A stretch of DNA of 64,000 nt, taken from positions 608,001-672,000 of the forward strand of contig CAVTQK010000015.1 of the NCBI GenBank assembly GCA_963736855.1, in the 5' to 3' direction. Position 1 is the stretch's first letter. Every line of letters begins with the position of its first letter. The notes under the pieces are model-generated. The model searched no databases and was not told the origin of the DNA. It worked only from the letters and a program-made list of their open reading frames with translations. Of this stretch, positions 5,482 through 60,839 are shown piece after piece. The translations under genes and the position numbers were made by a program. The DNA comes from an uncultured delta proteobacterium (GTDB lineage Bacteria; Desulfobacterota; Desulfobacteria; Desulfobacterales; UBA2156).

Positions 5482-5977
5482 GTCGGGCTCTGACCCCTTT
5501 ATCGAAGTAATGCTTGATGGATCTTCATTTCGGTGACGAGGTCTGCGGCGTCGATGATCCGGCGGGAGGCATGTCTTCCGGTGATGACCAGTTCGACATC
5601 ATCAGGCTTGGCCTCGATGACGTCCAGAATGTCTTGGACCGTGATGAGGCCCAATTTTGCCGCCACGTTGGCTTCTTCCAGGATGATCATTGATAGTCGG
5701 CCGCCGCCATGACCTCACGAATCCGGGCAAGCCCTTTTGCGCCGCAGCGATATTCTTCGGAGAAGGGGGCCCTCCACGAAACGTCCCAGACCGAATTGCT
5801 CCACTGAATTTGGTCCGAAAATCGGTCGAGCGCCTTGATTTCGCTGTAGTCTCCGAGTTTGATGAACTGTCCGATGAAGACTTTCAGGCCCGCACCGACA
5901 GCCCGTAACGCCAGTCCCAGGGCGGCGGTGGTCTTTCCTTTTCCGTTTCCCGTGTAGACCTGAACATATCCTCGCAT
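5465..5977 (-). CDS. cobO: Cob(I)yrinic acid a,c-diamide adenosyltransferase (BtuR/CobO), split by several apparent frameshifts
   Basis: VYTGNGKGKTTAALGLALRA, ELVITGR, ADLVTEM and C-terminal KHYFDKGVRARLGIEK found in different frames. Confidence 0.88.
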
Positions 5978-7490: not shown

Positions 7491-7713
7491 GGTACCGTTT
7501 TTCTCCCTTGAAGAATTTCAATTAGAATCCGGATCCATCGGCCATACCTTTTTTGAGGATGATTTATCAACTGCTTTAAGATGACTCAAAGGGCGCTCAT
7601 GTTACGGGAAAAGAGCACCGGTTCCATTTTCACGGATTTTTCCAGGCGATCTAAAGACAGGAGTTTGATTTTGACAAATCAGGATGATAAAAACCTAATA
7701 GTTTTTCAAAGAA

Positions 7714-7868
7714 TGATGAACTCGTAAAAAGTCGAAAATCAGATGGCAAAGTAAAAAGTTCAAGTTCAAGGCGTCGCGAATCCCGTGTGATGAGGCGTAC
7801 TTATCGTACGTCGAAATCGCAACGGGATGAAGCGCAACGCAGAAATTGGACTTTTTACGAAGCCATCA
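7714..7868. mobile_element. MITE-like element, ~155-bp family, copy 1
   Basis: Imperfect TIRs TGATGAACTCGTAAAAAGT ... ACTTTTTACGAAGCCATCA; interior nearly identical to 8600-8752 and related (inverted) to 55860 and 60685. Confidence 0.8.
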
Positions 7869-7909
7869 AAGAATGTTTATCGCATTTTAATGGACAGGAA
7901 ACGCATTTC

Positions 7910-8599: not shown

Positions 8600-8752
8600 T
8601 GATGATCTCATTAAAAGATCGAAAATCAGATCAAAGTAAAAAGTTCAAGTTCAAGGCGTCGCGAATCCCGTGTGATGAGGCGTACTTATCGTACGTCGAA
8701 ATCGCAACGGGATGAAGCGCAACGCAGAAATTGGCTTTTTACGAAGCCATCA
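8600..8752. mobile_element. MITE-like element, copy 2 (degenerate left end)
   Basis: Core AAGTTCAAGTTCAAGGCGTCGCGAATCCC...GCAGAAATTGG matches copy 1; ends TTTTTACGAAGCCATCA. Confidence 0.8.
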
Positions 8753-8849
8753 TAAAAATAAGTCTATCCATTTGATCCACAGATCTTGGGCCGATGGAAG
8801 GACGCCCAAGGCCGAGAGGGCCACTTATCAATCAATAAGGAGGGAAAAG

Positions 8850-22014: not shown

Positions 22015-22090
22015 TGGTCTGTCCGGCCCCGTCAAAATGGGCTTTGCCCTTCGCTGCGCGAATTTCACGGGGTAAATCTGTTTGTTCGGG
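22015..22090. repeat. Cassette boundary P1: 9-mer GGTCT(A/G)TYY repeats with an inserted palindromic element
   Basis: GGTCTGTCCGG|CCCCGTCAAAATGGGCTTTGCCCTTCGCTGCGCGAATTTCACGGGGTAAA|TCTGTTTG; related copies at 22846, 24169, 24931. Confidence 0.85.
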
Positions 22091-22179
22091 AGGATTGGAG
22101 AGAGAGAAAGAGTCATAAAAGACGCGGAAGAAGAGCACGTGATCCGAGTATCTAAACACAAAATGGGTGGGAATAGGGG

Positions 22180-22494
22180 TCAATCGATTCCATAAGCGGC
22201 ATCATGCGGTCCAAGCAGTACAAACTTGACGGTTGCGCCGGGTGTTTCCCGACAATCTGAACATCGGATGGCCACATCGTCCCCTTTTTTTCGGCAGGTT
22301 TCGCAAAACAGGTAAATGATGATGAAATTCCGTTTTACCGGGCAGGAATAAAAACCTTGCCAGTTCCCCTTTAACGGTTCCCCCATGGCGATGGGGTTCT
22401 GAAGAATCATGTCGACTTTGTTTTTAACGAGTTTCTTGATGGACGAGTATTTCTTTACCGATTTCAGGAAGGCGGCTTCAAATCGGGCTTCCAT
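22180..22494 (-). CDS. RelE/ParE-like toxin with two CxxC motifs
   Basis: FEAAFLKSVKKY...ILQNPIAMGEPLKGNWQGFYSCPV...IIY; directly downstream of an RHH-like antitoxin. Confidence 0.7.
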   Translation of the reverse strand: MEARFEAAFLKSVKKYSSIKKLVKNKVDMILQNPIAMGEPLKGNWQGFYSCPVKRNFIIIYLFCETCRKKGDDVAIRCSDCRETPGATVKFVLLGPHDAAYGID

Positions 22495-22751
22495 CAGTCG
22501 CCGAAGACCTCTTCATAGGAGTGCCATACAGCCGTTCCTTTTTGAAGTCGGACCAAAACGTCTTTCATCGCCGCATGGAAGACAGGATCGCTTAGAATGA
22601 CCTCCGTGTCTCTTCCTTCCGCTTTTCGTTTCAAGGTGAGCATGTATTGAGTCACGACATCGGCCACAGTGGTTCGGTTTTCAGCGGCGAACACCTTGAT
22701 GAAATCGGCAAGATCCTGATCGAGGCTGATGTTTATGCGTGTTTTTGGCAT
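22494..22751 (-). CDS. Ribbon-helix-helix antitoxin-like protein
   Basis: MPKTRINISLDQDLADFIK; C-terminal SYEEVFG; GGAGG RBS. Confidence 0.7.
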   Translation of the reverse strand: MPKTRINISLDQDLADFIKVFAAENRTTVADVVTQYMLTLKRKAEGRDTEVILSDPVFHAAMKDVLVRLQKGTAVWHSYEEVFGD

Positions 22752-22777
22752 AACGAACCTCCTTTCTGTATGTTCCC

Positions 22778-22806
22778 ATCATACACACGAAAGGAATCAA
22801 TGTCAA
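22778..22806 (-). promoter_or_regulatory. Sigma70-type promoter of the RHH-RelE pair
   Basis: Minus strand TTGACA (22806-22801), 17-nt spacer, TATGAT (22783-22778). Confidence 0.6.
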
Positions 22807-22845
22807 TCAACTCTTTGATCCCGATATAATAAATATGAATCTGCA

Positions 22846-22908
22846 TTGGTCTATTTGGTCTACCTGCCCCGGTGAAATGGGCTTTGCCCTTCGCTATGCG
22901 AATTTCAC
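22846..22908. repeat. Cassette boundary P2 (right-truncated)
   Basis: TTGGTCTATTTGGTCTACCTG|CCCCGGTGAAATGGGCTTTGCCCTTCGCTATGCGAATTTCAC. Confidence 0.85.
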
Positions 22909-22917
22909 TATGTGACT

Positions 22918-24102
22918 CTATTTGGCCGGGAGGGTTGAGATAAATCCATGAATCATAATGTTTTGTATAGAAATGTCATCAAGTTGATACCTTTCTTCGC
23001 CGTCATATAGGACATATCCGTTCCGGCATCTGTCTTTGGTGAGATTCCTGAAATGACCGATTCCTTTTAAAAAATCTTTTGTAAAGGTGGATCCCGATTT
23101 GATTTCAATAGGTATGAGTTGTCTTTGCTTTTTGATTAACAGATCCACTTCGTTTCCATGGGTGTCGCGATAAAAAAACAATTGGGGACGTATTCCAAGA
23201 TTGTATTGGGATTTTAAAATTTCAAGTATCACGAAGTTTTCATACAACCCTCCCCGGAGAGGATCCCGTTTGGCCTGGTTTGAAGTTTCAATCCCCAGCA
23301 GATGAGAAACCAGGCCGGTGTCAGTAAAATAGATTTTTGGAGATTTGACCACCCGCTTGTTGATATTTTCAAAAAACGGCTGCAATTCAAATATGACAAA
23401 TGAGGCTTGTAACACACTGATCCAGTTTTTGATGGAAGTGCCGGAAAGGCCGATATCATTGCCAAGGGATGTGTAGTTGACAATCTGGCCGATGCGTCCT
23501 GCCAGCAGGCCAAGGAATTGTTGAAACAGATTCAGGTTTTTGACATTGATAAGCGTTCTTACATCCCGTTCCACATAGGTTTGAACATATCCATTGTAGA
23601 AGCGGCCGGGGCTGAGGCCTTTATGATGCAGGCGAGGGAAGGACCCTTTGACTATGATCTCAAATGCATCCCATTTTTTTTTATAACTGAAAAGTTCCGA
23701 CAGGGAAAAAGGGAGCAGGGTCAGCAGGGCTGTCCTTCCTGCCAGGGTCTGGCTGATTGCCTGATGGACATCTGGCTGATGGCTGCCGGTAAGAATGAAC
23801 ATACCGGGTTTTTGTTTTTCATCGACAATCCCCTGGATATAGGACAACAATACGGGCAGGCGTTGTATTTCATCAAGTATTGCGCCGTGAGGGATATTTT
23901 TCAGGAATCCCCGGGGATCGGTTTCCGCAGCCATACGTACGTCCGGATTTTCCATGGAGTAGTATGGTTTATCAGGAAATGTCATTCTGACCAGAGTGGT
24001 TTTTCCGGATTGCCGTGGCCCAAAAACAGTGACAATCGGATATTCTGCTGCGGACTCAGTCAGTTCTTTTGTTATCTCGCGAATGATCATGGACGGGATC
24101 AT
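22918..24102 (-). CDS. AAA_14 ATPase with DUF4143 (PD-(D/E)xK-like C-terminus)
   Basis: GPRQSGKTT, LDEIQR, ILTGS, KSPKIYFTDTG, EVDLLI...PIEIKS. Confidence 0.9.
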   Translation of the reverse strand: MIPSMIIREITKELTESAAEYPIVTVFGPRQSGKTTLVRMTFPDKPYYSMENPDVRMAAETDPRGFLKNIPHGAILDEIQRLPVLLSYIQGIVDEKQKPGMFILTGSHQPDVHQAISQTLAGRTALLTLLPFSLSELFSYKKKWDAFEIIVKGSFPRLHHKGLSPGRFYNGYVQTYVERDVRTLINVKNLNLFQQFLGLLAGRIGQIVNYTSLGNDIGLSGTSIKNWISVLQASFVIFELQPFFENINKRVVKSPKIYFTDTGLVSHLLGIETSNQAKRDPLRGGLYENFVILEILKSQYNLGIRPQLFFYRDTHGNEVDLLIKKQRQLIPIEIKSGSTFTKDFLKGIGHFRNLTKDRCRNGYVLYDGEERYQLDDISIQNIMIHGFISTLPAK

Positions 24103-24168
24103 ATCTTTATTTGTGAAAAAATCAAGTTGTATTTTATATTTTCACAAAAATCAGGAGTGGGATGGAGA

Positions 24169-24275
24169 GGTCTATCTGGTCTATCCGGCCCCGGTGAAAT
24201 GGGCTTTGCCCTTCGCTGAGCGAATTTCAAGGGGTGAATCTGTTTGGTCGGCGGATGGTCTGTCGGTTTCCCCAG
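24169..24275. repeat. Cassette boundary P3
   Basis: GGTCTATCTGGTCTATCCGG|CCCCGGTGAAAT...ATTTCAAGGGGTGAA|TCTGTTTGGTCGGCGGATGGTCTGTCGGTTTCCCCAG. Confidence 0.85.
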
Positions 24276-24623
24276 CTATATTCTCAGGTGTTGTTCATCT
24301 AACCCTAAGGCGGCGCCGATTTTTATCAGGGTCGCGATATGCAGCCGGGCACGAGGACGCTCGTATTTAACAACAGCCGCCTGAGAAACGCCCAATCGTG
24401 AAGCTAATTCCTTTTGGGTGATACCGAGATATTCCCGCCACGCCCGGATCATTGAATCATTCCGGAGAACGTGTGCTTCAACAACTTCCTGAGGAATGCC
24501 TGCGGCACGCGCTTTTTCAGCATCCAGAAGGGGCTTGATTCGGCACCATTCATCCCATGGGATCAGAACATATGCAGGTTTTCCGCAATATTCGATTTTT
24601 TGGTATTCAATAGGTGTGCTCAT
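24276..24623 (-). CDS. XRE-family HTH antitoxin (HigA-like)
   Basis: IRAWREYLGITQKELASRLGVSQAAVVKYE; downstream of a RelE-like toxin. Confidence 0.85.
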   Translation of the reverse strand: MSTPIEYQKIEYCGKPAYVLIPWDEWCRIKPLLDAEKARAAGIPQEVVEAHVLRNDSMIRAWREYLGITQKELASRLGVSQAAVVKYERPRARLHIATLIKIGAALGLDEQHLRI

Positions 24624-24861
24624 TACGCTTTCTTACCTCCTCGATACTGACAATGTTGACTTCCTCAAAAACGTTGAACAGAACCCGCCAATTACCGACT
24701 CTAAGGCGATAACCATATTCATGGATCACCAACCTTTTCATGTTGGGTCCATCAGGGAAGGCAGACAATCCCCGAGTCGCATCAAGAATCCGTTCTTGAA
24801 TCGTACGATCACCAATCTTTGTTAATTGTTTTAACGCCTTGGGTTGCCATATAACTTTCAT
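24607..24861 (-). CDS. RelE/ParE family toxin (HigB-like order)
   Basis: VIWQPKALKQL...YRLRVGNWRVLF...EEVRKRNEHTY. Confidence 0.88.
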   Translation of the reverse strand: MKVIWQPKALKQLTKIGDRTIQERILDATRGLSAFPDGPNMKRLVIHEYGYRLRVGNWRVLFNVFEEVNIVSIEEVRKRNEHTY

Positions 24862-24870
24862 TTCACAGCT

Positions 24871-24914
24871 ATTTTAACTTAATATAACCTTTTGTCAATA
24901 TGAAAGGTTATATT
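24871..24914 (-). promoter_or_regulatory. Promoter with overlapping 12-bp inverted-repeat operator
   Basis: AATATAACCTTT (24881-24892) / AAAGGTTATATT (24903-24914) enclose minus-strand TTGACA; TAAAAT at 24876-24871. Confidence 0.7.
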
Positions 24915-24930
24915 TGATCAATTCGACTCT

Positions 24931-25010
24931 GGCGAAATGGGCTTTGCCTTTCGCTGCGCGAATTTCACGGGTAAATCTGTCTGGTATGGATGGTCTGTCG
25001 GTTTCCCCAG
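24931..25010. repeat. Cassette boundary P4
   Basis: GGCGAAATGGGCTTTGCCTTTCGCTGCGCGAATTTCACGGGTAAATCTGTCTGGTATGGATGGTCTGTCGGTTTCCCCAG. Confidence 0.8.
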
Positions 25011-25055
25011 CTAGATTTTCAAGCCATGGGATCAGAACATATGCAGGTTTTCCGC

Positions 25056-25119
25056 TTGACAAGCTTTTAATCAAATGTATACTATATGTACAAAATAAAC
25101 AATTTGATTATCATGTACA
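25056..25119 (+). promoter_or_regulatory. Promoter and TGTACA operator sites of the Phd/YefM operon
   Basis: TTGACA at 25056, TATACT at 25078, TGTACA at 25087 and 25114 (same core hexamer as the E. coli yefM-yoeB operator). Confidence 0.6.
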
Positions 25120-25134
25120 AAAGGAGATCACTGA

Positions 25135-25386
25135 ATGATAAATAAAGTAACAACGGCTGACGTAAGAAAAAATTTATCTCATATTATCAATAAGGTGGCA
25201 TATGGAAAAGAATCCTTTGTGCTGACCCGAAGAGGCCAAGCGGTCGCTGCGCTCGTCTCCATCGATGATCTGAAACTCATTGGGGACATTGAAGAGCTTC
25301 TAGATATCGAAGATGCTTGGAAAGCCCGAAATGAAACGGGTGAAAACATCCCTTGGGAAACGCTAAGAGCGGAGCTTAACCTTTGA
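25135..25386 (+). CDS. Phd/YefM family antitoxin
   Basis: VTTADVRKNLSHIINKV...FVLTRRGQAVAALVS. Confidence 0.88.
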   Translation: MINKVTTADVRKNLSHIINKVAYGKESFVLTRRGQAVAALVSIDDLKLIGDIEELLDIEDAWKARNETGENIPWETLRAELNL

Positions 25387-31206: not shown

Positions 31207-33039
31207 AGTTATTCCCTCCACAGGCCTTGCCCTTTGGCAGCAGGCAATGCGTCGCTGCCCGATACACCACTTTTGCCCAGGCGCGATGGCCTCTTTCGCC
31301 GGAGTCGGCACCTGAGTGAAGCCACTGACGGACCGGGATGGAAAAACCGGTTTTTGGCCGGTCGATGATCGTCTCGGGTGGGGCTCCGGCCCAGGCTGTT
31401 TCGGCCATCAGGCGTTTGTCCGGTCTCGGGTATTGCTGCATCAAAGGTATCATCGCTCTCCTCAAGTCCAGGTCCACCAACGGGACCCGAATCTCCAAGG
31501 AATGCGCCATGCTAGCCCAGTCGCTGTCTCTGAGAAGCATGTTGCGCATGAACCAAGTGGTTTCCAGGGCCGACACCGACGCAAAACTCCCTGTTCCCGG
31601 TTGGACTGTTCGATTAAGGTGAGAAAGAGACGCCAGATCCCTCCAGCCATCGCGCACCATATCGGGGTCCAAAAGCCTTGGCAGTTCCCAGGGCATATAT
31701 AGGTCCCACCTCAAAAGATAGGCTCCGCCGACAGTTGCGCCATATTCGAATACTCCTGCATACTTGGGTGAGGTAAAATGCTTGATGAGGGGCTCTGTGA
31801 TAATCCGAAATGCCTTGCCGAATGCCCTGAATGGGGCGGCAACTTTCATCAATCTGGGGATATGCTGGAATGAAGGATAGCCGCCGAATATTTCATCACC
31901 GCCCAACCCGGAAAGCACCACTTTAAGGCCGCTTTCCGCCGCGGCCTTGCTGACGAAATATGTATTGACACCATCGATGGTCGGCTGATCCATAGCGGTA
32001 AAAATTTTCTCTATGTCCTGTGTAAAGTCTTTCCCGCGCACCCAGCCTGTTTCATGGACCGTGCATAGCTTGCGAGCCACCATCTCGGCAAAGGGACTTT
32101 CATCATTTTGGGTGCCGCGATACTCTTCAAAGCCCAGGGTGAACGTGCGAAGCGGTTTATCGGAGCACCCGACCGCCAGGGTCGCTATTGAGGTCGAGTC
32201 CAGGCCAGCCGAGAGGAATACCCCAACCGGCACATCAGAAACCATGTGGCGCCGCACGCTCTCCTGCAATGCTTGGCCCAGAGCTATTCGGCGACTTTCT
32301 CCCGGGTCATGCTGAAATTCGGACTGCCCGGCCGGGCGATTTCCTGCGCCACATCACAGAACATTGTCAGTTTCGGTTGTGTGTCGCCTCGCGCCACCCA
32401 TAGGGTCGTGCCTGCCGGCACGCCCGTATTCGCTTGTAAAGCGTAAAGGGTTCGGGCACATAGCCCAGAGAAAGAATCCCACATGCCCGGCCGGTTCAGG
32501 TGCGGTGTCCGAGCATCCGGCCGCCAGCAACGTCTTCACCTGGCTGGCCACCCGTATCGTGCGCCCATCATTCGATTAATACAGAGGTTTTATACCAAAG
32601 GGGTCCCGGGCCAGAAAAAGACCGGACTTCTTTTGGTCCCAGCAGGGCAAAGGCGTACATGCCCCGCAGATGTTCCACCATCGCCTGATCGTATTCACGA
32701 TACAGATGGAGCAGAACTTCCGTGTCGCTGCTGGACCGAAACCGGCAGCCCCGTGCCTCCAGCCCTGAGCGCAAGGTTCTGTAGTTGTAGATCTCCCCAT
32801 TATACGTAATCCGCAGGAGACCGTCTTCAGTCGCCATGGGCTGTGCCCCGGCAGACGACAGATCGATGATGGCAAGACGCCGGTGCCCCAAACCTACGGC
32901 CCCGTCCTCAGATACCCAAAACACCTTCGCCGTCCGGCCCCCGCGCCCTCTGCGCCCGATTGGCAACACGGAGCCAGTTCACCGCAACGTTGTGTTCTGG
33001 CCTATCATTGTAGTAAAACAATAAAGCGATTCCGCACAT
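31199..33039 (-). CDS. asnB: Asparagine synthase (glutamine-hydrolysing)-like amidotransferase, several apparent frameshifts
   Basis: MCGIA, RGPDG, LGHRRLAIIDLS, YNGEIYNY, ARDPFGIKPLY, FLSAGLDS, SGLGGDE, SMAHSLEIRVP across frames. Confidence 0.88.
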
Positions 33040-35121: not shown

Positions 35122-36551
35122 TTAGGATTTTGAATAGCCATAAGAGAATAAAATCCTGGGGAAGGCTCCTGAATATATAAAGTAAATAGGCGTCGGACGA
35201 CCCTTCCACAAACTGATTATGGATACGAGAAGCAAATATATTGCCCAGATATTGGCATGAAGATCAAATCCCGAAATTTTCTTAACCAACACCAGCCAAA
35301 TCAGACCCAAAACACCGGGATAGAAAAAGGCGCCAGTCCATCCGAAAGCCGAATATCCATTTCCAATCAGGGCGACTGTTGCATACCCTTCCCTTATATT
35401 TCTTGCGCGGAAATGATAATATAACCAGTCACCTTTACTATATCCTCTTGGCTTGTCCGGCGCCAACACCCTCGGCATGGATCTATAGATACTATCGGTG
35501 AGATCTTTTACCCCAACTTTGCCGTGAAAATCGGTCCCGGTTTTTAGTACATCCACATGGTTGATGTTGCTCATTCGTTCTAATACATTTTGCGGTTTGC
35601 CATAGTAGTTGAGATACCATCCGTAGCGTGCGCTCAGGTTCCTCTCTTTAACAAAGGCGGAAAATGCATCGGTCGAATTGTAAAATGCATCGATGGTTGC
35701 ATCGATGCGCTGGGTCCAGGACAATTTTCCGCGAAAGGCGCTGCGCACATATAAAAAAACCGGGGTGATGAAAACAACCATCACCGCTATTAATGTTGAT
35801 ATAATAACAAGCTTGCGCCACCTGATTTTATATTCGAATGCGGAAACAGTGGCCACAAAACACAGAAGCGTTTCCATCAAGGCCATGGGGAATTGCTGAC
35901 CATTGCAGAGGCGAGTTCAGCGATTAAAATGGCCAGGACCCAAATGTTGAGGCTTCGCTTGTGGTTGGACCTGATCAGGACACGGGCAATGGCAGCGATG
36001 AGCGATAGGTGCAAAAAAGGTGTAAAAAACGTTGCTACGGTGATCCCAGTATAGGTTTCTCCCGCTCGAAAGGCCACGGCTGTATTGGCGGTAATCCCGA
36101 CAACCCCTGCCAAAAAGGAAATGCGACCTAAAGCTGTCGGGTTGGATGTCGGCGCCAATAGAGGACGACCTATCGGTATCCTTGAGGACATAATAAGCGC
36201 AATGCTGTAGCCGATGACCCCCACCAGAACCACGCCGAAAGAACCGGTGGGATCCTGAAGGTATTTATTCAGGACCTGGCCCATGGCCAGCTTGGCGAAA
36301 AAAGGGAAGCCAACGTAACGGAACCCCACCAGGGCAACCAATACCGCTGCAATGTTAAAAGGGCCGAAATAGGCCAAAGGCAAAAGGCTCAAAATGATGG
36401 AAGCCGCGCAGAAAAGCACCGCTGCAGAACTGGCCCCCATGATCAAGTGGCACCCGGTGGCAAGGACCACCAAAATTGAGGCAATTTTAAGAAGTGTGCG
36501 TCCCTGGCTGGTATCCGGGGCAAATTCCTTTACTCGTTGATTAAGCATCAT
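35122..36551 (-). CDS. Polytopic membrane protein, putative Wzy-like polymerase (apparent frameshift near 35880)
   Basis: Two consecutive hydrophobic ORFs with a large periplasmic loop (SMPRVLAPDKP) inside the polysaccharide operon. Confidence 0.55.
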
Positions 36552-37827: not shown

Positions 37828-39229
37828 TCATTGGTTCAGAAACGCGTCGGTATGCTTAGCGGTAATGTGCTTTTTCCAAACCAACCTGAAACCTACCAAA
37901 GGATTAAGGGCCAACATAAGGTTTGAACCCGGATGGGTGCCTATGAGGCGGGATGCCGCATGCAGAGCATACAATGTCATAGCGCTGTCCGTCAACAGGA
38001 GAGCCAGCCCGGCGTTTGCGACGTTGCCAGTCCATGACATGAGAAAAAGTCCGAAGCCTACTGCTGCTGCGGAACTCAAGACGAAAACAAAAGCTGCTCG
38101 CAGGTGCCGGTTGGCCGCTTTGAGAACGACCAGACCTTCATACCACAACGCGCTTGCAGCTGCTGAGGCAAGAAGCCAGGCAAAGAGCGTGGGGTGCATC
38201 AACACCCTACCGTGTGTCCAAATAGCAAGAATGGAATTGCCGAAAAAAGCCAATCCTGCAACGGCAATCAGGGCAAGCCACAGGCCGGCACTCAGCATAT
38301 GGACGAAAAGGGAATTGCAAAGAGAGGTATTCCTGACACCGTAAGCGGCCGCAAGTTCAGGCTCGACGGCCCAGCTTATTGAATAAACGAGCTGCACGAT
38401 CAGACGAGTCAATGTGCGTAAGGTGGAAAAGACAACCACTGCCACGGAACCAAGCACACCGCCCACCGCCAACACCATGCCTTGGATATTCAGCCCATCG
38501 GCAAAAGTAATGGAAAGGTTTGCCAACGCGGGTTTGAACAACCTGTAAAGTTCGGCGCGATCAGCGTGCTTGAAGCCGAAAGAAAGCCAGTGGTAGCGAT
38601 GCACCAATATGAGCGCAATTGCTGGAGTAGCTATGCGCACGCACTCCGAAAAAGGCCCCGGCCGCTGCGATCGGTCCGCCGCCACTGAGCGCGGCGATCC
38701 ATATGGCGGTAAATTGAACCAGTCGAATCGTTGTGTTTAGAATCAGATGCAGGCTATAATTGCCTGTAGCGCGGAAGCCTGCGTGGTTGATTCCATCGGG
38801 AAGTTGGGCGAATATCCCGGCAGCAAGCAGAAAAAGAACCCACCGCACTTCGATGACGCGCATCGCACTAAAATTCATCCAATTTTCGAGATGCAATCCG
38901 AATATCAAGAAAGAGGTCAGTATAAACATGGAGACGGTAGCAAAAAAAACAAAGGCCATAAGGCTCTGAAAAATAACCAGGGCACCTGCACGATCTCCAC
39001 GTGCGACCCGGGCGGTCATGTCGTTTGCGGCGGATTGGGATAATCCAAGGTCTGTTAAAGACAGATACACCGGAATCGCAAACAACATGAGCCATTCACC
39101 GTAGAGCTGCGTGCCCCAAGCATGCAACAGAATGGGAACGCCGATCAACTGGATGACTACGGTGACGACCTGATTGCAGATATTGGCGCTGAAACCTTTG
39201 CGCAGGCGACTTCGTACCCCTAAATCCAC
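37828..39229 (-). CDS. Wzx-like polysaccharide flippase (apparent frameshift near 38640)
   Basis: WGTQLYGEWL...DLGLSQ N-terminal motif, many TM helices over two ORFs. Confidence 0.78.
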
Positions 39230-40115: not shown

Positions 40116-40353
40116 CTGACTGAAGGAAACTTTTTGTCATGAAACGAGAAATATTGAAGATAATCGAAACCACGAACACTTGGAAAAACTAAAAAAACCA
40201 TCAATTGGTCCCGTATCGAATCCATTCTATCGAGCCATTATGTCGTAGGCACCATCGGGGAAGGCGCCGACGTCTATCCGTTGCTGCTGTATAAGTGCCT
40301 GCTCCTCCAATAATGGTTCTGGATTTCCTCTTATCCGGAACTGGAAAACCAAA

Positions 40354-40637
40354 TTCACCCGGTTAAATAAGATTTGAGTCTCCTTCTTAAAAAACATCCG
40401 GCCATGGTATGATTTTAAATATTTTTCACGCCTTGACGCGTCTTCCTGATGAATACAGGCTTCATAATAAATCAACTTCAATGGCCTCCTATCCTTGGTG
40501 GATTCCACAAGGCCTTTTTGATGCTGCTCAAATCTTTGCTTGAGGTTTTTCGAAATCCGACATAAAAATCACCGTCTTTTTCGCTTTGGAGAACGTATGT
40601 AAAAACCATCAAACCTCAAGCAATTTAACCGGGTAAA
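40354..40637. mobile_element. Putative GIY-YIG element bounded by 15-bp inverted arms
   Basis: TTCACCCGGTTAAAT (40354-40368) and ATTTAACCGGGTAAA (40623-40637), 14/15 complementary. Confidence 0.6.
40355..40609 (-). CDS. Small standalone GIY-YIG nuclease (two compensating apparent frameshifts)
   Basis: MVFTYVLQSEKDGDFYVGF, NLKQRFEQHQKG, STKDRRPLKLIYYEA, ASRREKYLKS, ending RLKSYLTG*. Confidence 0.82.
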
Positions 40638-40777
40638 AAGAACTTCGAGAAAAAAGCCAAACCCCGGAAGGAAACTCGATAAAAACGGCAAGCCAAAAAA
40701 TTATACTCGAGATCTGGAATCCGGCTGGAATGCCAAGGATGAAAAGAATCCTCATTATGGGCTGAAAGAGCATACCT

Positions 40778-40885
40778 CGGTTTGAACGAAAAAAGGGTTA
40801 CATTGCACAAATCCGACCTCAAAATTTTCTGAAAAATTTTCCAAAAAGCTAAAATCCGAAATCCAGGTGATTTTTCAAACCTCTC
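40778..40885. mobile_element. Isolated IS terminal segment
   Basis: Similar to 42759-42866; ends TTTTCAAACCTCTC. Confidence 0.55.
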
Positions 40886-42169: not shown

Positions 42170-42866
42170 CGGTGATCAGACTACGTAGCCGTCAGGCGTC
42201 GCCAGACACCCATAACGGCTTCATCCTGGCTGCCACTTTGCCCTGCCTCGGAACACGATACCAATTATTTCCAATATTGCACCGCTTTCTCTCGGCCGAT
42301 ACGAAATGGCCGATTATAAAGGCGTACGCCGACAAGGCATATTTTGGAGAGCCAAAACGGCGCTTTCTTCTGCACAAAACAATTCGAAGACGGCATCATG
42401 AGAAAAGATACGACGACGGCCAAGTGACTCCCTATGAGAAAGCAAGAAACAAAAAGATTTCCAAAATCCGATACATCGTTGAAACGATACTTTGGACTGA
42501 GTCATCTTCACGATCATGCCTATCGGGCAAGGTTTACTACCATCGTTAAAAATAACCTCGACTGCTAGTGCAGACAGGTTTACCCCGTTACATTCCGAAG
42601 GACTATTAACCGGGGCAGGATTCAACATAAAACGAGGATTGAGAATTCTAAAGCTGGCGTTCATATAAATACAGCAGAGGTGTGTACAAAGAATAAAATC
42701 AAAAGAATTAAACATCGAAAATGATGAAATCGAAACGAAATAGAACCGCCATCTCTTTCGGCTTGAACGAAAAATTGGTCAAACCGGATAAAACGGCAAC
42801 AAAATTTTTCTGAAAAATCTCCTAAAAAGTTAAAATCCGAAATCTGAGTAAATTTTCAAACCTTTC
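42170..42866 (+). mobile_element. Degraded IS5-like transposase 3' half and right end
   Basis: YADKAYFGEP, RNKKISKIRYIVE, RARFTTIVKN, FNIKRG in broken frames; terminal TTTTCAAACCTTTC. Confidence 0.7.
42579..42615 (-). repeat. 37-bp palindromic element inserted in the transposase remnant
   Basis: Reverse complement CCCCGGTTAATAGTCCTTCGGAATGTAACGGGGTAAA has the same ends as the P1-P4 palindromes. Confidence 0.65.
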
Positions 42867-43044: not shown

Positions 43045-43122
43045 TTGGAAAGACGGGAATCCCGAGCTTGCTCCAAATCTCGTTCCGCCTGACGGAACCA
43101 GTCATGTGAACGATTCGGAATA
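43045..43122 (-). pseudogene. 5' remnant of the HEPN gene at 45769-46158
   Basis: CGTTCCGCCTGACGGAACCAGTCATGTGAACGATTCGG is near-identical to 46118-46155; ATG replaced by ATT. Confidence 0.8.
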
Positions 43123-43127
43123 TGTTT

Positions 43128-43156
43128 CTCACAGAGCCCATAGAGGGCGCAGAGGG
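43128..43156. repeat. Cassette boundary R1 (three CRYAGAG units, 9-bp period)
   Basis: CTCACAGAGCCCATAGAGGGCGCAGAGGG. Confidence 0.9.
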
Positions 43157-43309
43157 TTTTTCAGATTCGCAGGCTGCGCATTACATATTCGGCCAAATCC
43201 ACTCGTGAAACATCTGGGTTTTAGGCTATCATGTCGAGATAGAGAATCGATCAAGTAGCTTCATTATAAGACGTATAACGACGATGGATCATGTTCGGGG
43301 AAAAAGGTT

Positions 43310-43696
43310 TTACTTTTTGCCATTCCTTATTTCCGAAAGTTCGTTGCTCATTTTTTGAATGGCTTCTCTTAGCCTTGGGATATGGTTCGCACAGATGTCA
43401 AAAATAATTTCATGGTCAACATGCTCGTAGTGGTGAGAAACCAGATCTCGAAACCGTGCAATCTTATCCCATTCGATCTCAGCATAACGGTTTAAAAATG
43501 GTAAATCCTTCTTCTGTATTTTCTTCACCGACTCACCGATGATTTGGAGCCTCATTGAAATTGCATCCAACAGTGTGACCCCATCCGATGTTGACACAAA
43601 ATCTCCAGATTCAGCGATCTTTGAAAATCGTTCCTGCACAAGGCTGATTGAGTCGAGCAAAACATCCAGAATCTCAACAATTTCATCTTCAGACAT
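43310..43696 (-). CDS. HepT/DUF86 HEPN ribonuclease toxin
   Basis: LQIIGESVK, IEWDKIARFRDLVSHHY (Rx4H), VDHEIIFD. Confidence 0.88.
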   Translation of the reverse strand: MSEDEIVEILDVLLDSISLVQERFSKIAESGDFVSTSDGVTLLDAISMRLQIIGESVKKIQKKDLPFLNRYAEIEWDKIARFRDLVSHHYEHVDHEIIFDICANHIPRLREAIQKMSNELSEIRNGKK

Positions 43697-43979
43697 AGTG
43701 GATATCTCTCTCAATTCGTTTTAAAAAGCGTTCGCTCAGCCCCTTCCTCTTACGAATTAGCTCGACCGGTTTCCCCAATCTGTTTTCGAGATATATATGC
43801 AGTCCGGCTAGGTAATCAAAACGAGCTTCGGTTAGTTCAACAAGCAAATCGATATCGCTATCGGGTTGGTGTGTTTCTTTCGCGTGGGAACCGAAAAGCC
43901 CGATGGCCAAGAGACCGTATTTATTCCTAAGATATTGCTTTTCTGAACGTAAAATATCCAATATTTCTTTGCTGGTCAT
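43689..43979 (-). CDS. MntA-like minimal nucleotidyltransferase antitoxin
   Basis: IGLFGSHAK...DSDIDLLVE; overlaps the DUF86 gene. Confidence 0.9.
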   Translation of the reverse strand: MTSKEILDILRSEKQYLRNKYGLLAIGLFGSHAKETHQPDSDIDLLVELTEARFDYLAGLHIYLENRLGKPVELIRKRKGLSERFLKRIERDIHYV

Positions 43980-44002
43980 GATTTTTTTCGTAAGAGGGGC
44001 AT

Positions 44003-44031
44003 CTCACAGAGTTCGCAGAGGGCGCAGAGGG
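44003..44031. repeat. Cassette boundary R2
   Basis: CTCACAGAGTTCGCAGAGGGCGCAGAGGG. Confidence 0.9.
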
Positions 44032-44059
44032 TTCAAGTGTTTGGAGAGAATCGATATCC

Positions 44060-44638
44060 TTATTTCTTCGACAAAGAAAGGTTTCGGAAATGCGTGTTCC
44101 ATTCTTTCAGGAGTCCTTTATTGTCGATTTTTTCCATCAGGACCCTGAAATCGATTTGATCTCCGGAGAGCTCAAGGATACCGCCGATATCGTTTAAATG
44201 TTTTTCTGAACCGCCTTCATGATAATATTCCAGCTTGCGCAGAATAACATATTCAATGGGGGCGATCCAGATCGATTCCCCTTCAAAACGGATCTCTTTG
44301 CGCTTGTTGAGTGCCCACTGGTGAAGCTTGCTGTTGCCCATTGGGTAAATGTCGGCCTTGAAACCCGTTGTATGATGAATCAGGTTGAAGTGACCGCCTG
44401 ATGGCCTTGAAATTTCGATTTTGATGATTTCCGGTGGCGGGCAATAAAATTCTGAAAGAGGAAAGACTTCGGTAAAGCTTCCGATATTAAAGGGTTCCAG
44501 ATCGATCACAAGATCGAGGTCATGGGTTAAGCGGGGTTTACCGTATATAATGGACGCCATTGCCCCGGTGACCATGTAGCGAATTCTCAATTGGTTGAAC
44601 CGGGAGATGAATATTTTCAGAAGATCAAGTTCGGGCAT
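44060..44638 (-). CDS. Nucleotidyltransferase-fold protein (AbiEii/DUF6036-like)
   Basis: YMVTGAMASIIYGKPRLTHDLDLVI; ILRKL...SEKHLNDI. Confidence 0.75.
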   Translation of the reverse strand: MPELDLLKIFISRFNQLRIRYMVTGAMASIIYGKPRLTHDLDLVIDLEPFNIGSFTEVFPLSEFYCPPPEIIKIEISRPSGGHFNLIHHTTGFKADIYPMGNSKLHQWALNKRKEIRFEGESIWIAPIEYVILRKLEYYHEGGSEKHLNDIGGILELSGDQIDFRVLMEKIDNKGLLKEWNTHFRNLSLSKK

Positions 44639-44816
44639 AGAGGAATATTTCCTTGACCTTGTTTTGGATTTGTTCGTCCGTCCAATCGGGATGCTGCAGA
44701 CGCAACCCCGCTTCTTTCAGTTTATGTGCACAAGAATACAGATCCAGAAAAAGCCTTAGTTTTTGTTCCGGATTTAATTTTTTTAGGAAATCATTTTGAG
44801 ATGGATTTTCTGTCAT
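44625..44816 (-). CDS. Small partner protein upstream of the nucleotidyltransferase
   Basis: LKKLNPEQKL...AGLRLQHPDWTDEQI; overlaps the downstream gene start. Confidence 0.65.
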   Translation of the reverse strand: MTENPSQNDFLKKLNPEQKLRLFLDLYSCAHKLKEAGLRLQHPDWTDEQIQNKVKEIFLYART

Positions 44817-44844
44817 TCCAATGGCTCTAATTTTTCTTCGGTCC

Positions 44845-44873
44845 CTCATAGAGTTCACAGAGGACGCAGAGGG
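44845..44873. repeat. Cassette boundary R3
   Basis: CTCATAGAGTTCACAGAGGACGCAGAGGG. Confidence 0.9.
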
Positions 44874-45061
44874 TTTTTCAGATTCGCAGGCTGCGCATTA
44901 CACATTCGGCCAAATCCACTCGTGAAACATCTGGGCTCAGGCTATCGCGTCGGGATAGTGAATCGATCAAGTAGCTTCACTATAAGATGTAGAACGACGA
45001 TGGATTATGTTCGGAGAAAAAGGTTTTACTTTTTGCCATTCCTTTGATGTGTTCTCCGCGT

Positions 45062-45388
45062 TCACGACCTGTGTTTATTCGGGTTTAATCCCTTTGTTGA
45101 AAATTTAAGCAACAAAACCGACTCTCGCGCTTTTTCCACCAAGCGGACTTTTTCTGGCCAAGTGAGCGCACGGAGGTTTTTTTGCCGGAGGGCATACCGA
45201 TTCAGCAAAAACGATATTTCATTTAATACATAAAGCCCTTCTGACTCTGGCACCCCAACCAAAACATCAATATCCAAAGTTGCTACCGGTTCGGCATACC
45301 GTATCTGCGCCATTGCGCCAAATATGGCGTAATTGATGATCACCTCCTTCTTGACCATCTCATTCAGCAATTCAGCTAGTTCTTTCAC
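45062..45388 (-). pseudogene. Probably deleted/fused nucleotidyltransferase-partner remnant
   Basis: N-terminal YAIFGAMAQIRYAEPVATLDIDVLV motif but only 108 aa; C-terminus LTWPEKVRLVE resembles small partner proteins. Confidence 0.5.
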
Positions 45389-45446
45389 ATCACCTCTCTT
45401 TAAGAAAGATAGGTATTGCGATTAAAGGTATCTTGCTGTCTATTTA

Positions 45447-45812
45447 TCACTGGTCACGCTCATAGACCCAGTTTACCTCTTCAAGCAGCATTCGGCTGAA
45501 GCGAGTGTTCGGATCCATTGCTTTCCACTCTGAAAGGGTATAGACTAGCACATCTGCAGGAACCGGCAGCTCGGAAGTGTCCCAGGCGATCCCTCGGCGC
45601 ACAAAAGGTTCATTGGACTTTTCCACAATAATAATGAGATCCAGGTCGCTTCCCACGCCCCAGTCACTTCGTGCCAAAGAGCCAAAATACCCGATACGTA
45701 CCACTTCGGGTCTCATGGCAGCGACCTCTGCCGCCCAAGTCTCAAGGCGGCGCACCACTGTATCTTGATCAGGCCATCGCATTACGGACGAAGTCAAGGA
45801 TCTCACCGGCAT
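45447..45812 (-). CDS. MNT nucleotidyltransferase
   Basis: IGYFGSLARSDWGVGSDLDLIII, PADVLVYT. Confidence 0.88.
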   Translation of the reverse strand: MPVRSLTSSVMRWPDQDTVVRRLETWAAEVAAMRPEVVRIGYFGSLARSDWGVGSDLDLIIIVEKSNEPFVRRGIAWDTSELPVPADVLVYTLSEWKAMDPNTRFSRMLLEEVNWVYERDQ

Positions 45813-46158
45813 ATTGGATCGCCTCTTTACTTTGTAAAGGTCCATAATGTTCAAAGGGCGCCCCTTCCGGATGCCCGTTTGGGTATCGTGGCGGAATGTA
45901 ATAGGCATCGAGAACCCGGCCTTTCTCGATAAGATCTTCAGGGATGCGGATTGTTTTCGGCAGTTCGATCAGAAGTTTGGCGATCACGTGGCCCCACGCC
46001 TCTTGGCCCAACTTCAGATGAAGCGCTTTCACCACCTTTTCCGCTGACTGCTGAGCCGCAAAACATGCCCATTCATGCCGGCCGGAAAGACGAGAATCCC
46101 TGGCCTGGTCTAAATCCCGTTCCGCCTGACGGAACCAATCATGTGAACGATTCGGCAT
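45769..46158 (-). CDS. HEPN domain protein
   Basis: WFRQAERDL, ACFAAQQSAEKVVKAL, WGH, YIPPRYPN. Confidence 0.9.
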   Translation of the reverse strand: MPNRSHDWFRQAERDLDQARDSRLSGRHEWACFAAQQSAEKVVKALHLKLGQEAWGHVIAKLLIELPKTIRIPEDLIEKGRVLDAYYIPPRYPNGHPEGAPFEHYGPLQSKEAIQYAGEILDFVRNAMA

Positions 46159-46164
46159 GTGTTC

Positions 46165-46193
46165 CTCACAGAGCGCGCAGAGGGCGCAGAGGG
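46165..46193. repeat. Cassette boundary R4
   Basis: CTCACAGAGCGCGCAGAGGGCGCAGAGGG. Confidence 0.9.
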
Positions 46194-46350
46194 TTCAAGT
46201 GTTTGGAGAGAATCGATATCCTTATTTCTTCGACAAAGAAAGGTTTCGGAAATGCGTGTTCCATTCTTTCAGGAGTCCTTTATTGTCGATTTTTTCCATC
46301 AGGACCCTGAAATCGATTTGATCTCCGGAGAGCTCAAGGATACCGCCGAT
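46194..46350 (-). pseudogene. Duplicate of 44032-44188 (3' end of the 44060-44638 gene plus tail)
   Basis: 157-bp copy with no differences seen by eye. Confidence 0.9.
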
Positions 46351-46428
46351 TTTGAATAGATTCCAATACCGATGTCACTAAGACCTCGTTCCAAGTAAAT
46401 AACAAGGGACTTTTGAAATTTGATTACC

Positions 46429-55823: not shown

Positions 55824-55860
55824 ATGGCCGGCGCACTCAAAATTCATGCCGGCCATTTTT
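55824..55860. terminator. Hairpin, possible intrinsic terminator
   Basis: ATGGCCGGC...GCCGGCCAT followed by TTTT. Confidence 0.4.
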
Positions 55861-56014
55861 GATGGCTTCGTAAAAAGTCCATCTGCTGCGTTGCACTGCA
55901 TCCTTCGTCATTGCGGCGTACCCATATGTATGCCTCATTCCTCAGGATTTGCGCGCCTTGCATCTGAAGCTTTTTACTTTGCCATCCTAATTTTGACTTT
56001 TTACAATTTCATCA
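55860..56014. mobile_element. MITE-like element, copy 3 (inverted relative to copy 1)
   Basis: TGATGGCTTCGTAAAAAGTCC ... GACTTTTTACAATTTCATCA; near-identical to 60685-60839. Confidence 0.82.
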
Positions 56015-56040
56015 TTTTTCAGGGTCATTAAAATTCTAAC

Positions 56041-60593: not shown

Positions 60594-60684
60594 GGTGCTT
60601 CTCCTTCTAATACGGGTAAAGGAAACAGGCCGATAAATAAATTAAAAGTAGCCGAAATTTCCCTCTTTGTCAACGCGTTAAATT

Positions 60685-60839
60685 GGATGGCTTCGTAAAA
60701 AGTCCATCTGCTGCGTTGCACTGCATCCTTCGTTATTGCGGCGTACCCACATGTACGCCTCATTCCTCAGGATTTGCGCGCCTTGCATCTGAAGCTTTTT
60801 ACTTTACCATCCTAATTTTGAGTTTTTACGATTTCATCA
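60685..60839. mobile_element. MITE-like element, copy 4
   Basis: GATGGCTTCGTAAAAAGTCC ... GTTTTTACGATTTCATCA. Confidence 0.82.

Follow-up and report, generated by a model that had tools for sequence, protein, structure and literature searches.

A broken GIY-YIG gene between inverted arms

The window (the whole stretch of 64,000 nucleotides analysed here) carries a compact element on its minus strand at 40354..40637. The core of the element, CCC...GGG, runs from 40633 to 40358 and is bordered by outer 4-mers that read TTTA (40637-40634) and TGAA (40357-40354) on the minus strand. As an earlier sequence-only reading of this DNA had described, inverted arms, TTCACCCGGTTAAAT (40354-40368) and ATTTAACCGGGTAAA (40623-40637), enclose a GIY-YIG gene, and the arm at 40354-40368 encodes the last codons and the stop of that gene (Y-L-T-G-TGA). 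The unit folds at z = -5.6, and none of 200 shuffles was as stable.

The gene (40355..40609, minus strand) had been read as 85 codons long. Its net span of 255 nt, or 84 codons plus a stop, agrees with this, but the reading frame is not intact: it lacks a base beside 40552 and has one too many in the A run at 40389-40394. These opposite 1-nt shifts cancel by length only and no single frame spans the gene, which falls into a start piece (MVFTYVLQ...), a middle piece (...LKQRFEQH...GRMF) and an end piece (LRRRLKSYLTG and the stop). The middle piece matches the Pfam GIY-YIG family PF01541 with 37.6 bits (E 2.8e-9; cut-off 22.6), and P0001, a close relative in which the gene is intact, scores 59.8 bits against the same cut-off.

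Contigs from four studies (runs X1-X4) show no gap in the A run, and the frameshift there is therefore real; assembly error is thus ruled out for the A-run shift. At 40552, record 27 of X4 carries the missing base and X1 shows a different short form; this shift may be strain variation or an assembly error. The assembly also shows indels relative to X1 and X2 at other places. Several genes elsewhere in the window appear to be split by 1-nt indels (5687-5977, 32568-32969, 35877-35890, 38561-38685 and 41492), and one-base differences from contigs of the other runs are seen at 35887, 38635 and 41499. Given these contig differences, some of the window's 1-nt indels are assembly errors or strain changes. 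The element, being frameshifted, is dead in the sampled population as judged from the X1-X4 contigs, and is not autonomous. Neither BLAST nor Pfam found a second full copy in the window's genome (G000), so that the earlier proposal of a candidate autonomous element fails for this copy: the two frameshifts rule out an intact autonomous copy at 40354-40637, which is the sole full copy found.

The element lies in a decayed gene for an IS5-type transposase on the plus strand. The 5' part of this gene (40181..40353), 76% to a paralogue on contig C21 of the same genome, ends with E-N-Q-I (target site 1), and the gene resumes at I-K-E (target site 2; 40638..40781). The 231 bp between the two Ile codons are missing, the element standing in their place. 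The paralogue matches NF033581 and DUF772, and the IS5-type sequence is the host of the element, not part of it. Two other kinds of repeat occur in the window. MITE-like repeats of about 160 bp, a separate family, lie in both orientations at 7709-7870, 8632-8757, 55858-56019 and 60683-60839, and repeats of 90-200 bp lie between tandem gene pairs of nucleotidyltransferase/HEPN type at 43047-46361.

A widespread family under purifying selection

The middle piece of the window gene matched 624 proteins; among the matches listed, 99 of 120 end in SYLTG and most are 84 aa long. Profile searches confirmed at least 599 stretches in the genome collection and at least 480 in the metagenome collection; the analysis used the 80 top-scoring ones from each collection, a choice that favours intact copies. 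Among these best-scoring copies, which come from several phyla, arms are present in 156 of 159, confirming the expectation that homologues would be flanked by them. The left arm matches the coded right arm in all 80 genome copies (79 loci, since L083 holds two; L075, with a changed tail, was left out), compared with 1 of 76 control windows. In the metagenomes 76 of 79 copies have arms, and two further copies lie at contig edges. The titles of matched records name Desulfobacterales, Patescibacteria, Scalindua/Brocadiaceae, Bacteroidales, Cloacimonadota and Verrucomicrobiota. No family match was returned by a plasmid scan (E 1e-15) or a phage scan (E 1e-10), and viral contigs gave four distant loci, the best at 58%.

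The family protein has 84 aa in a single domain and is a member of the GIY-YIG superfamily: it scores above the PF01541 cut-off with the catalytic Tyr, Tyr-Gly, Arg and Glu conserved, the window copy being frameshifted. Y16, G18 and R26 are kept in all 135 dereplicated genes, and Y5, H30 and E62 in 133-134 of them. Outside the stems described below, dN/dS is 0.08 (144 pairs from the 135 genes), indicating purifying selection. A model of the protein (pLDDT 90) is most like UPF0213 proteins, HIGLE and Slx1 in Foldseek, weakly so, with just one match reaching E 0.001. The window copy is thus a broken member of a widespread family of inserted elements of about 280 bp whose only gene is a miniature nuclease.

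Several relatives show variations on this plan. Sister clades (L002, L003, L094, L184, L186, L187 and L090) have arm variants of their own, for example of the CCCGTTACAAAT type, and in L184 and L187 the TTTA/CAGG ends stand in reverse order relative to the gene. A separate clade of small GIY-YIG genes (L006, L007, L009, L190, L200, L207, L258 and L259) ends in a tRNA-like 3' half in which a hairpin substitutes for the anticodon arm. One genome, G120 (L178, L205 and L238-L240), has six close full copies that are merely 70-81% alike, together with 18 matches to the gene-less short elements that we call minis; it has been invaded repeatedly and independently.

Insertion sites and evidence of movement

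Among the 156 arm-bearing copies (from the best 80 of each scan), 45 split a gene for which an intact homologue was at hand, a few of these being the same site sampled twice. Empty sites, another feature sought on the earlier suggestion, exist for full and mini copies alike, in homologues and paralogues. L051 and L053 share 98% identity and have flanks that are unrelated to each other, and further copies are 96% identical with flanks that are likewise unrelated. Empty sites and copies in unrelated flanks together indicate, at the level of sequence, that the family is mobile. The idea of a minimal mobile element is thus supported for the family, with its arms, but not for the window copy, which is not autonomous.

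The target word at the left junction is TT-N-A or CYYG. At non-CYYG sites, removal of the element restores the host frame exactly in 18 of 26 cases. None of the 19 CYYG sites, mostly at N-I/L-A-E-G of four-helix PF05635 genes, is precise, the net change being -2, -1 or +1. Where the frame is restored, the host word has lost its third base to a substitute: His/Gln codons have become TAY/TAR (L019, L040 and L066), a Tyr codon CAT (L115) and an Ile codon ATG (L206). This suggests that the inserted unit is CA...TAA or TA...TGA, replacing N in TT-N-A. Direct repeats of at least 2 nt, as a target duplication would leave, are absent from 135-148 of 156 copies under five of six definitions of the ends, and from 105 under the sixth.

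The outer 4-mers are nearly always mutually mismatched, with TTCA...TAAA at 39, TTTA...TGAA at 20 and perfect pairs at 9 of 68 distinct sites of this type. Since the two main classes are reverse complements of each other, the gene lies either way relative to the asymmetry of the ends. The class of 4-mers is only partly a fixed trait of lineages; nearest neighbours agree in 69 of 122 cases (shuffled mean 42, maximum 66).

Both target sites seen in the window are used singly elsewhere, by clean insertions that retain the 231-bp stretch: L205 and L206 lie at site 1 (E-N-Q-I) and L111 at site 2 (K-E-I-K). The elements using one or other site in this way are just 73-77% alike.

A predicted three-way junction

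The ends of the element appear to belong to a larger fold made of three stems. P1 pairs the arms, its 5' strand being the arm upstream of the gene (40623..40633) and its 3' strand (40358..40368) coding for the last residues, (Y)-L-T-G; all strands are given as read on the minus strand. P2 pairs the leader, including a GAGG word that resembles a ribosome site (40611..40622), with codons 22-25, N-L-K-Q (40537..40548). P3 pairs codons 26-28, R-F-E (40527..40536), with codons 78-80, L-K-S (40369..40378). The three stems meet with zero unpaired bases.

Covariation was assessed in an alignment, made without fitting to the fold, of 77 copies (the window and 76 of the 80 genome copies; L022, L053, L057 and one L083 copy were left out). 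The three helices are paired in 98%, 93% and 96% of cells, compared with 26-50% for slid controls, and all three are kept in 73 of 77 rows. In the same alignment both sides have changed in 20 of 35 pairs overall and in 7 of 10 in P2, although the rows are related and these pairing counts are not independent events. Residue 25 varies (L, Q, S, V, R or G) in step with the leader base paired to its codon, and synonymous divergence is six-fold lower in stem codons than elsewhere (0.10 vs 0.62). By these sequence measures, the coding sequence varies together with the arms and the leader in the manner of a three-way junction, and the ends would be one stem of that junction rather than ordinary transposon inverted repeats.

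On the sense strand, G.T juxtapositions are about as frequent as A.C (29 vs 30), which favours a DNA fold over an mRNA fold. The prediction is that the element DNA, once single-stranded, adopts this three-way junction.

Gene-less minis share the ends of the element

Five minis lie in the window. The mini at 22027..22076 (plus strand, 50 bp) has both arms and two inner hairpins forming a three-way junction. Three further plus-strand minis belong to the same subfamily: one at 22867..22916 with a decayed right arm, one at 24189..24238 that is junction-type with both arms, and one at 24927..24975 (placed at 24931 in the earlier reading) with a decayed left arm. The fifth (42579..42615, minus strand, 37 bp) has a stem, one hairpin and both arms with mismatches, and is inserted in another decayed copy of the IS5-type IS (42215-42866). 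Fold z values for the five are -2.9, -4.2, -3.3, -1.6 and -1.3. The short elements with similar ends that had been noted from the sequence are thus real and related, with both arms at 22027, 24189 and 42579 and one arm lost in the other two; the description of a single tiny hairpin does not hold for the four at 22-25 kb, which have two small ones.

The 42579 mini has an empty site in the IS copy on contig C21 of the same genome and in an X2 contig. The contigs of other runs showed no empty site for any of the four minis at 22-25 kb. A first scan of the genome gave five matches, compared with one and four in shuffles, and missed the window's five degenerate copies; hence just three perfect minis were followed (C21:80823, C21:520283 and C24:145517). 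These are 43-bp insertions at I-Y-E-V-D, in the ends of IS91-type genes; six or more paralogues, 76-90% alike, lack the insertion, and the three minis may go back to a single event. The window's genome holds eight or more related minis, four of them with empty paralogues. Across the order, the exact arm pattern matches 55 of 251 genomes and the reversed pattern none.

The 36 stored minis with at least 20 inner bases comprise 20 tight junctions (1.4 expected after shuffling), 3 loose ones, 12 hairpins and 1 with neither, and the tight junctions are built from unrelated hairpins. Shorter minis are plain hairpins in 20 of 21 cases; together with the 12 longer hairpins, this means that the junction may not be required. 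The L220/L255 mini retains P2 and P3 bases of the full element and is on that account a direct internal deletion of it. This case and the shared ends support the view of the palindromes as derivatives of the element, the full copy in the window not being autonomous itself.

The four minis at 22027-24975 alternate, on one strand, with gene blocks (a RelE-like pair, an AAA-DUF4143 ATPase and a ParE-HTH pair) that share flanking 9-nt repeats, an arrangement like a cassette array. Contigs of X1 join 24251 to 22815 and 22907 to 25202, hinting at rearrangement here. A decayed mini elsewhere in the genome (L279; C15:298365-298420) sits at the IS5-type codon used by the 42579 mini; the sequence on its other side is unrelated, and it thus marks a rearrangement junction.

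Comparison with known systems

The closest published system, to judge from the available text of PMC11893778, is Ssn/SRM. Ssn proteins (cd10448) are associated with SRM hairpins, have been shown to cut single-stranded DNA and have been proposed to have an IS-like origin (Chenal et al. 2025, PMC11893778); SsnA of Neisseria meningitidis is accompanied by NTS/SRM repeats, and the authors likened NTS-ssnA-NTS to an insertion sequence. Both Ssn and the present family are single-domain GIY-YIG proteins that are shorter than 100 aa and associated with short palindromic repeats elsewhere in the genome (PMC11893778). Unlike Ssn, the family has arms that pair across the gene, one of them coding, and a putative three-way-junction fold. 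Insertion and empty sites are documented for it, whereas none are shown for Ssn in the available parts of PMC11893778. The SRM motif, as defined in the text available to us (PMC11893778), was found within 500 bp of none of 156 family copies, nor at the window; next to L010 and L272 the pattern is detected. SRM-flanked L010, our proxy for cd10448, reaches 50 bits with the family profile and groups with two similar proteins. In a tree (87 columns) these three Ssn-like proteins sit on a long branch of their own (100/99), distant from the family, which is itself a clade (99/98); they were labelled Ssn-like by SRM flank and sequence likeness rather than by CDD and include no named SsnA sequence.

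The family resembles IS200/IS605 and REP/RAYT (TnpA-REP) elements in its structure-based ends, its short target word without target duplication and its short derivatives that carry no gene and lie within genes as well as between them, as those systems are described in PMC6006769 and PMC3733652. Those systems depend on an HUH enzyme and on hairpins that bear a tag (PMC6006769, PMC3733652). The present element, in contrast, is 280 bp long with a GIY-YIG gene as its sole gene and no HUH/Y1 gene, replaces one target base and has one imprecise class of junction. It shares inverted arms with DDE insertion sequences and MITEs, but has neither a target duplication nor a DDE gene inside.

The best structural and sequence matches of the protein, Slx1, HIGLE and UPF0213 (PDB 6SEI, 7WME and 1ZG2), are 25-30% identical to it. 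Slx1 is reported to cleave branched DNA close to the branch point (PMC6902002). The family protein, unlike these, has no partner or extra domains, and its gene lies inside its own putative substrate. No DNA-binding module was found in it, TIGR01453 giving 21 bits against a cut-off of 56.

Free-standing GIY-YIG homing endonuclease genes (I-TevI and Seg types) are selfish and revisit conserved codons of multi-copy genes; a homing endonuclease typically has one cognate site, with a long recognition sequence, and a DNA-binding domain apart from the catalytic one. The family is similar in revisiting conserved codons in four-helix PF05635, GxxExxY PF13366 and ORF6N PF10543 genes. It differs in that its targets are many and unrelated, its ends are defined, derivatives without the gene exist and its 84-aa protein consists of the catalytic domain only.

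Proposed mechanism and alternatives

We think it probable that the 84-residue GIY-YIG product of this 280-bp element recognises its own junction and nicks element and target, and that host repair joins them. The element DNA, once single-stranded, would fold as a three-way junction that the protein recognises; the protein would nick the foot of the element and a short TT-N-A target, and host polymerase and ligase would complete the insertion by joining the nicked ends. We know of no joining activity for GIY-YIG enzymes. The same protein would move minis in trans. In the window, the ends of the element may have been linked to two target codons that lay 231 bp from each other, or that stretch may have been deleted later; the copy then decayed. 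The DNA fold, the cutting role of the protein, the movement of minis in trans and the finishing by the host are all things we infer from sequence.

A different enzyme, a Y1/RAYT or IS91-type HUH transposase, could instead use the arms as its substrate, with the GIY-YIG gene as cargo, perhaps a homing-type helper that would cut empty sites. We consider this unlikely. The two enzymes were compared by counting minis in 250 genomes of the order (G000 excluded), many of them kin and so not independent. Of the 11 genomes that carry a close gene (E below 1e-23; four of the matches are from sister clades and one is truncated), 7 contain minis, vs 47 of 239 without such a gene (p 0.0025); for the strict clade only, the counts are 3 of 6 vs 51 of 244 (p 0.12). 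The close gene was not found in 47 of 54 mini-bearing genomes, including the single-contig G095, and five mini-rich genomes have distant GIY-YIG genes only (best 59 bits); this persistence of minis where the gene was not found suits an HUH enzyme. So does the abundance of candidates, with Y1_Tnp in 228 of 251 genomes (227 of 250 without G000) and 13 Y2_Tnp matches in G000, although so wide a presence makes Y1 uninformative as a discriminator: minis occur in 52 of 227 genomes with a Y1 match and still in 2 of 23 without (p 0.18). The expected correlation between gene and palindromes is positive but weak (rho 0.23), and the Y1 transposase count correlates with minis too (rho 0.16). The 4-nt target without target duplication likewise recalls IS200/IS605, on the available description (PMC6006769). 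Against an HUH enzyme, no match to Y1_Tnp (PF01797) came from the 92 reading frames that were scanned, out of 145 extracted, in the 1.5 kb around each of 30 minis, and the REP tag, GTAG/GTGG or CGTC, is absent from the foot of the hairpin, where the words are TTCA, TTTA, CYTG and TRAA. It is also hard to explain why the codons of a mere cargo nuclease should build the structure. On balance, these sequence comparisons lean towards the nuclease over an HUH transposase.

That the protein serves its host as a single-strand nuclease, cutting incoming single-stranded DNA at repeats that spread passively, as in Neisseria SsnA/NTS, strikes us as improbable. The plan of a small single-domain GIY-YIG protein with hairpin repeats is shared, and SsnA cuts single-stranded DNA beside its own hairpin and lowers transformation, according to the available text of PMC11893778. 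The gene, however, is patchy (27 of 251 genomes at E 1e-15 and 7 at 1e-40), reaches six close copies at different sites in one genome (G120) and is inserted in coding sequence, and the window copy has decayed; a selfish element fits this pattern, and a fixed host gene does not. Very unlikely, in our view, is a fold that acts in RNA by hiding the ribosome-binding site, ending the transcript and limiting a toxic nuclease, with the gene moving by ordinary recombination. P2 in the window does cover the GAGG word just upstream of the start codon, and the fold may have a second role in translation control. An RNA function sits poorly with the lack of G.T excess on the sense strand, with a fold that is kept in gene-less minis and with a gene orientation that goes either way relative to the end asymmetry; Rfam, moreover, gave no match at five loci.

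The reading that we prefer, movement by the element's own nuclease, points to a family that would work like a REP/IS200-type single-strand element on an Ssn-like enzyme, while being a member of neither group. The chances seem to us evenly balanced that it represents a new class of prokaryotic transposable element, in which about 280 bp are both gene and substrate, a GIY-YIG protein is the transposase and REP-like repeats arise without HUH. Its own codons would then form the junction cut by its 84-residue product, which would move the element and junction-only derivatives of 35-60 bp. A literature search, with most subscription journals outside its coverage, found no description of such an element.

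If this is true, a third type of enzyme, beside DDE and HUH, spreads short palindromic repeats in bacteria, and the mobility of small GIY-YIG genes with hairpins, hitherto just proposed for Ssn, would have a direct test. As a structure-guided tool for DNA, an 84-residue reader of a three-way junction with two side arms of arbitrary sequence would also be very small. Uncultured Desulfobacterota, Patescibacteria, Planctomycetota and Bacteroidota commonly carry the family, and it disrupts toxin-antitoxin, four-helix and transposase genes. The nuclease is likely to move both the element and its minis, and the element would then be a jumping gene of an undescribed and unusually small kind.
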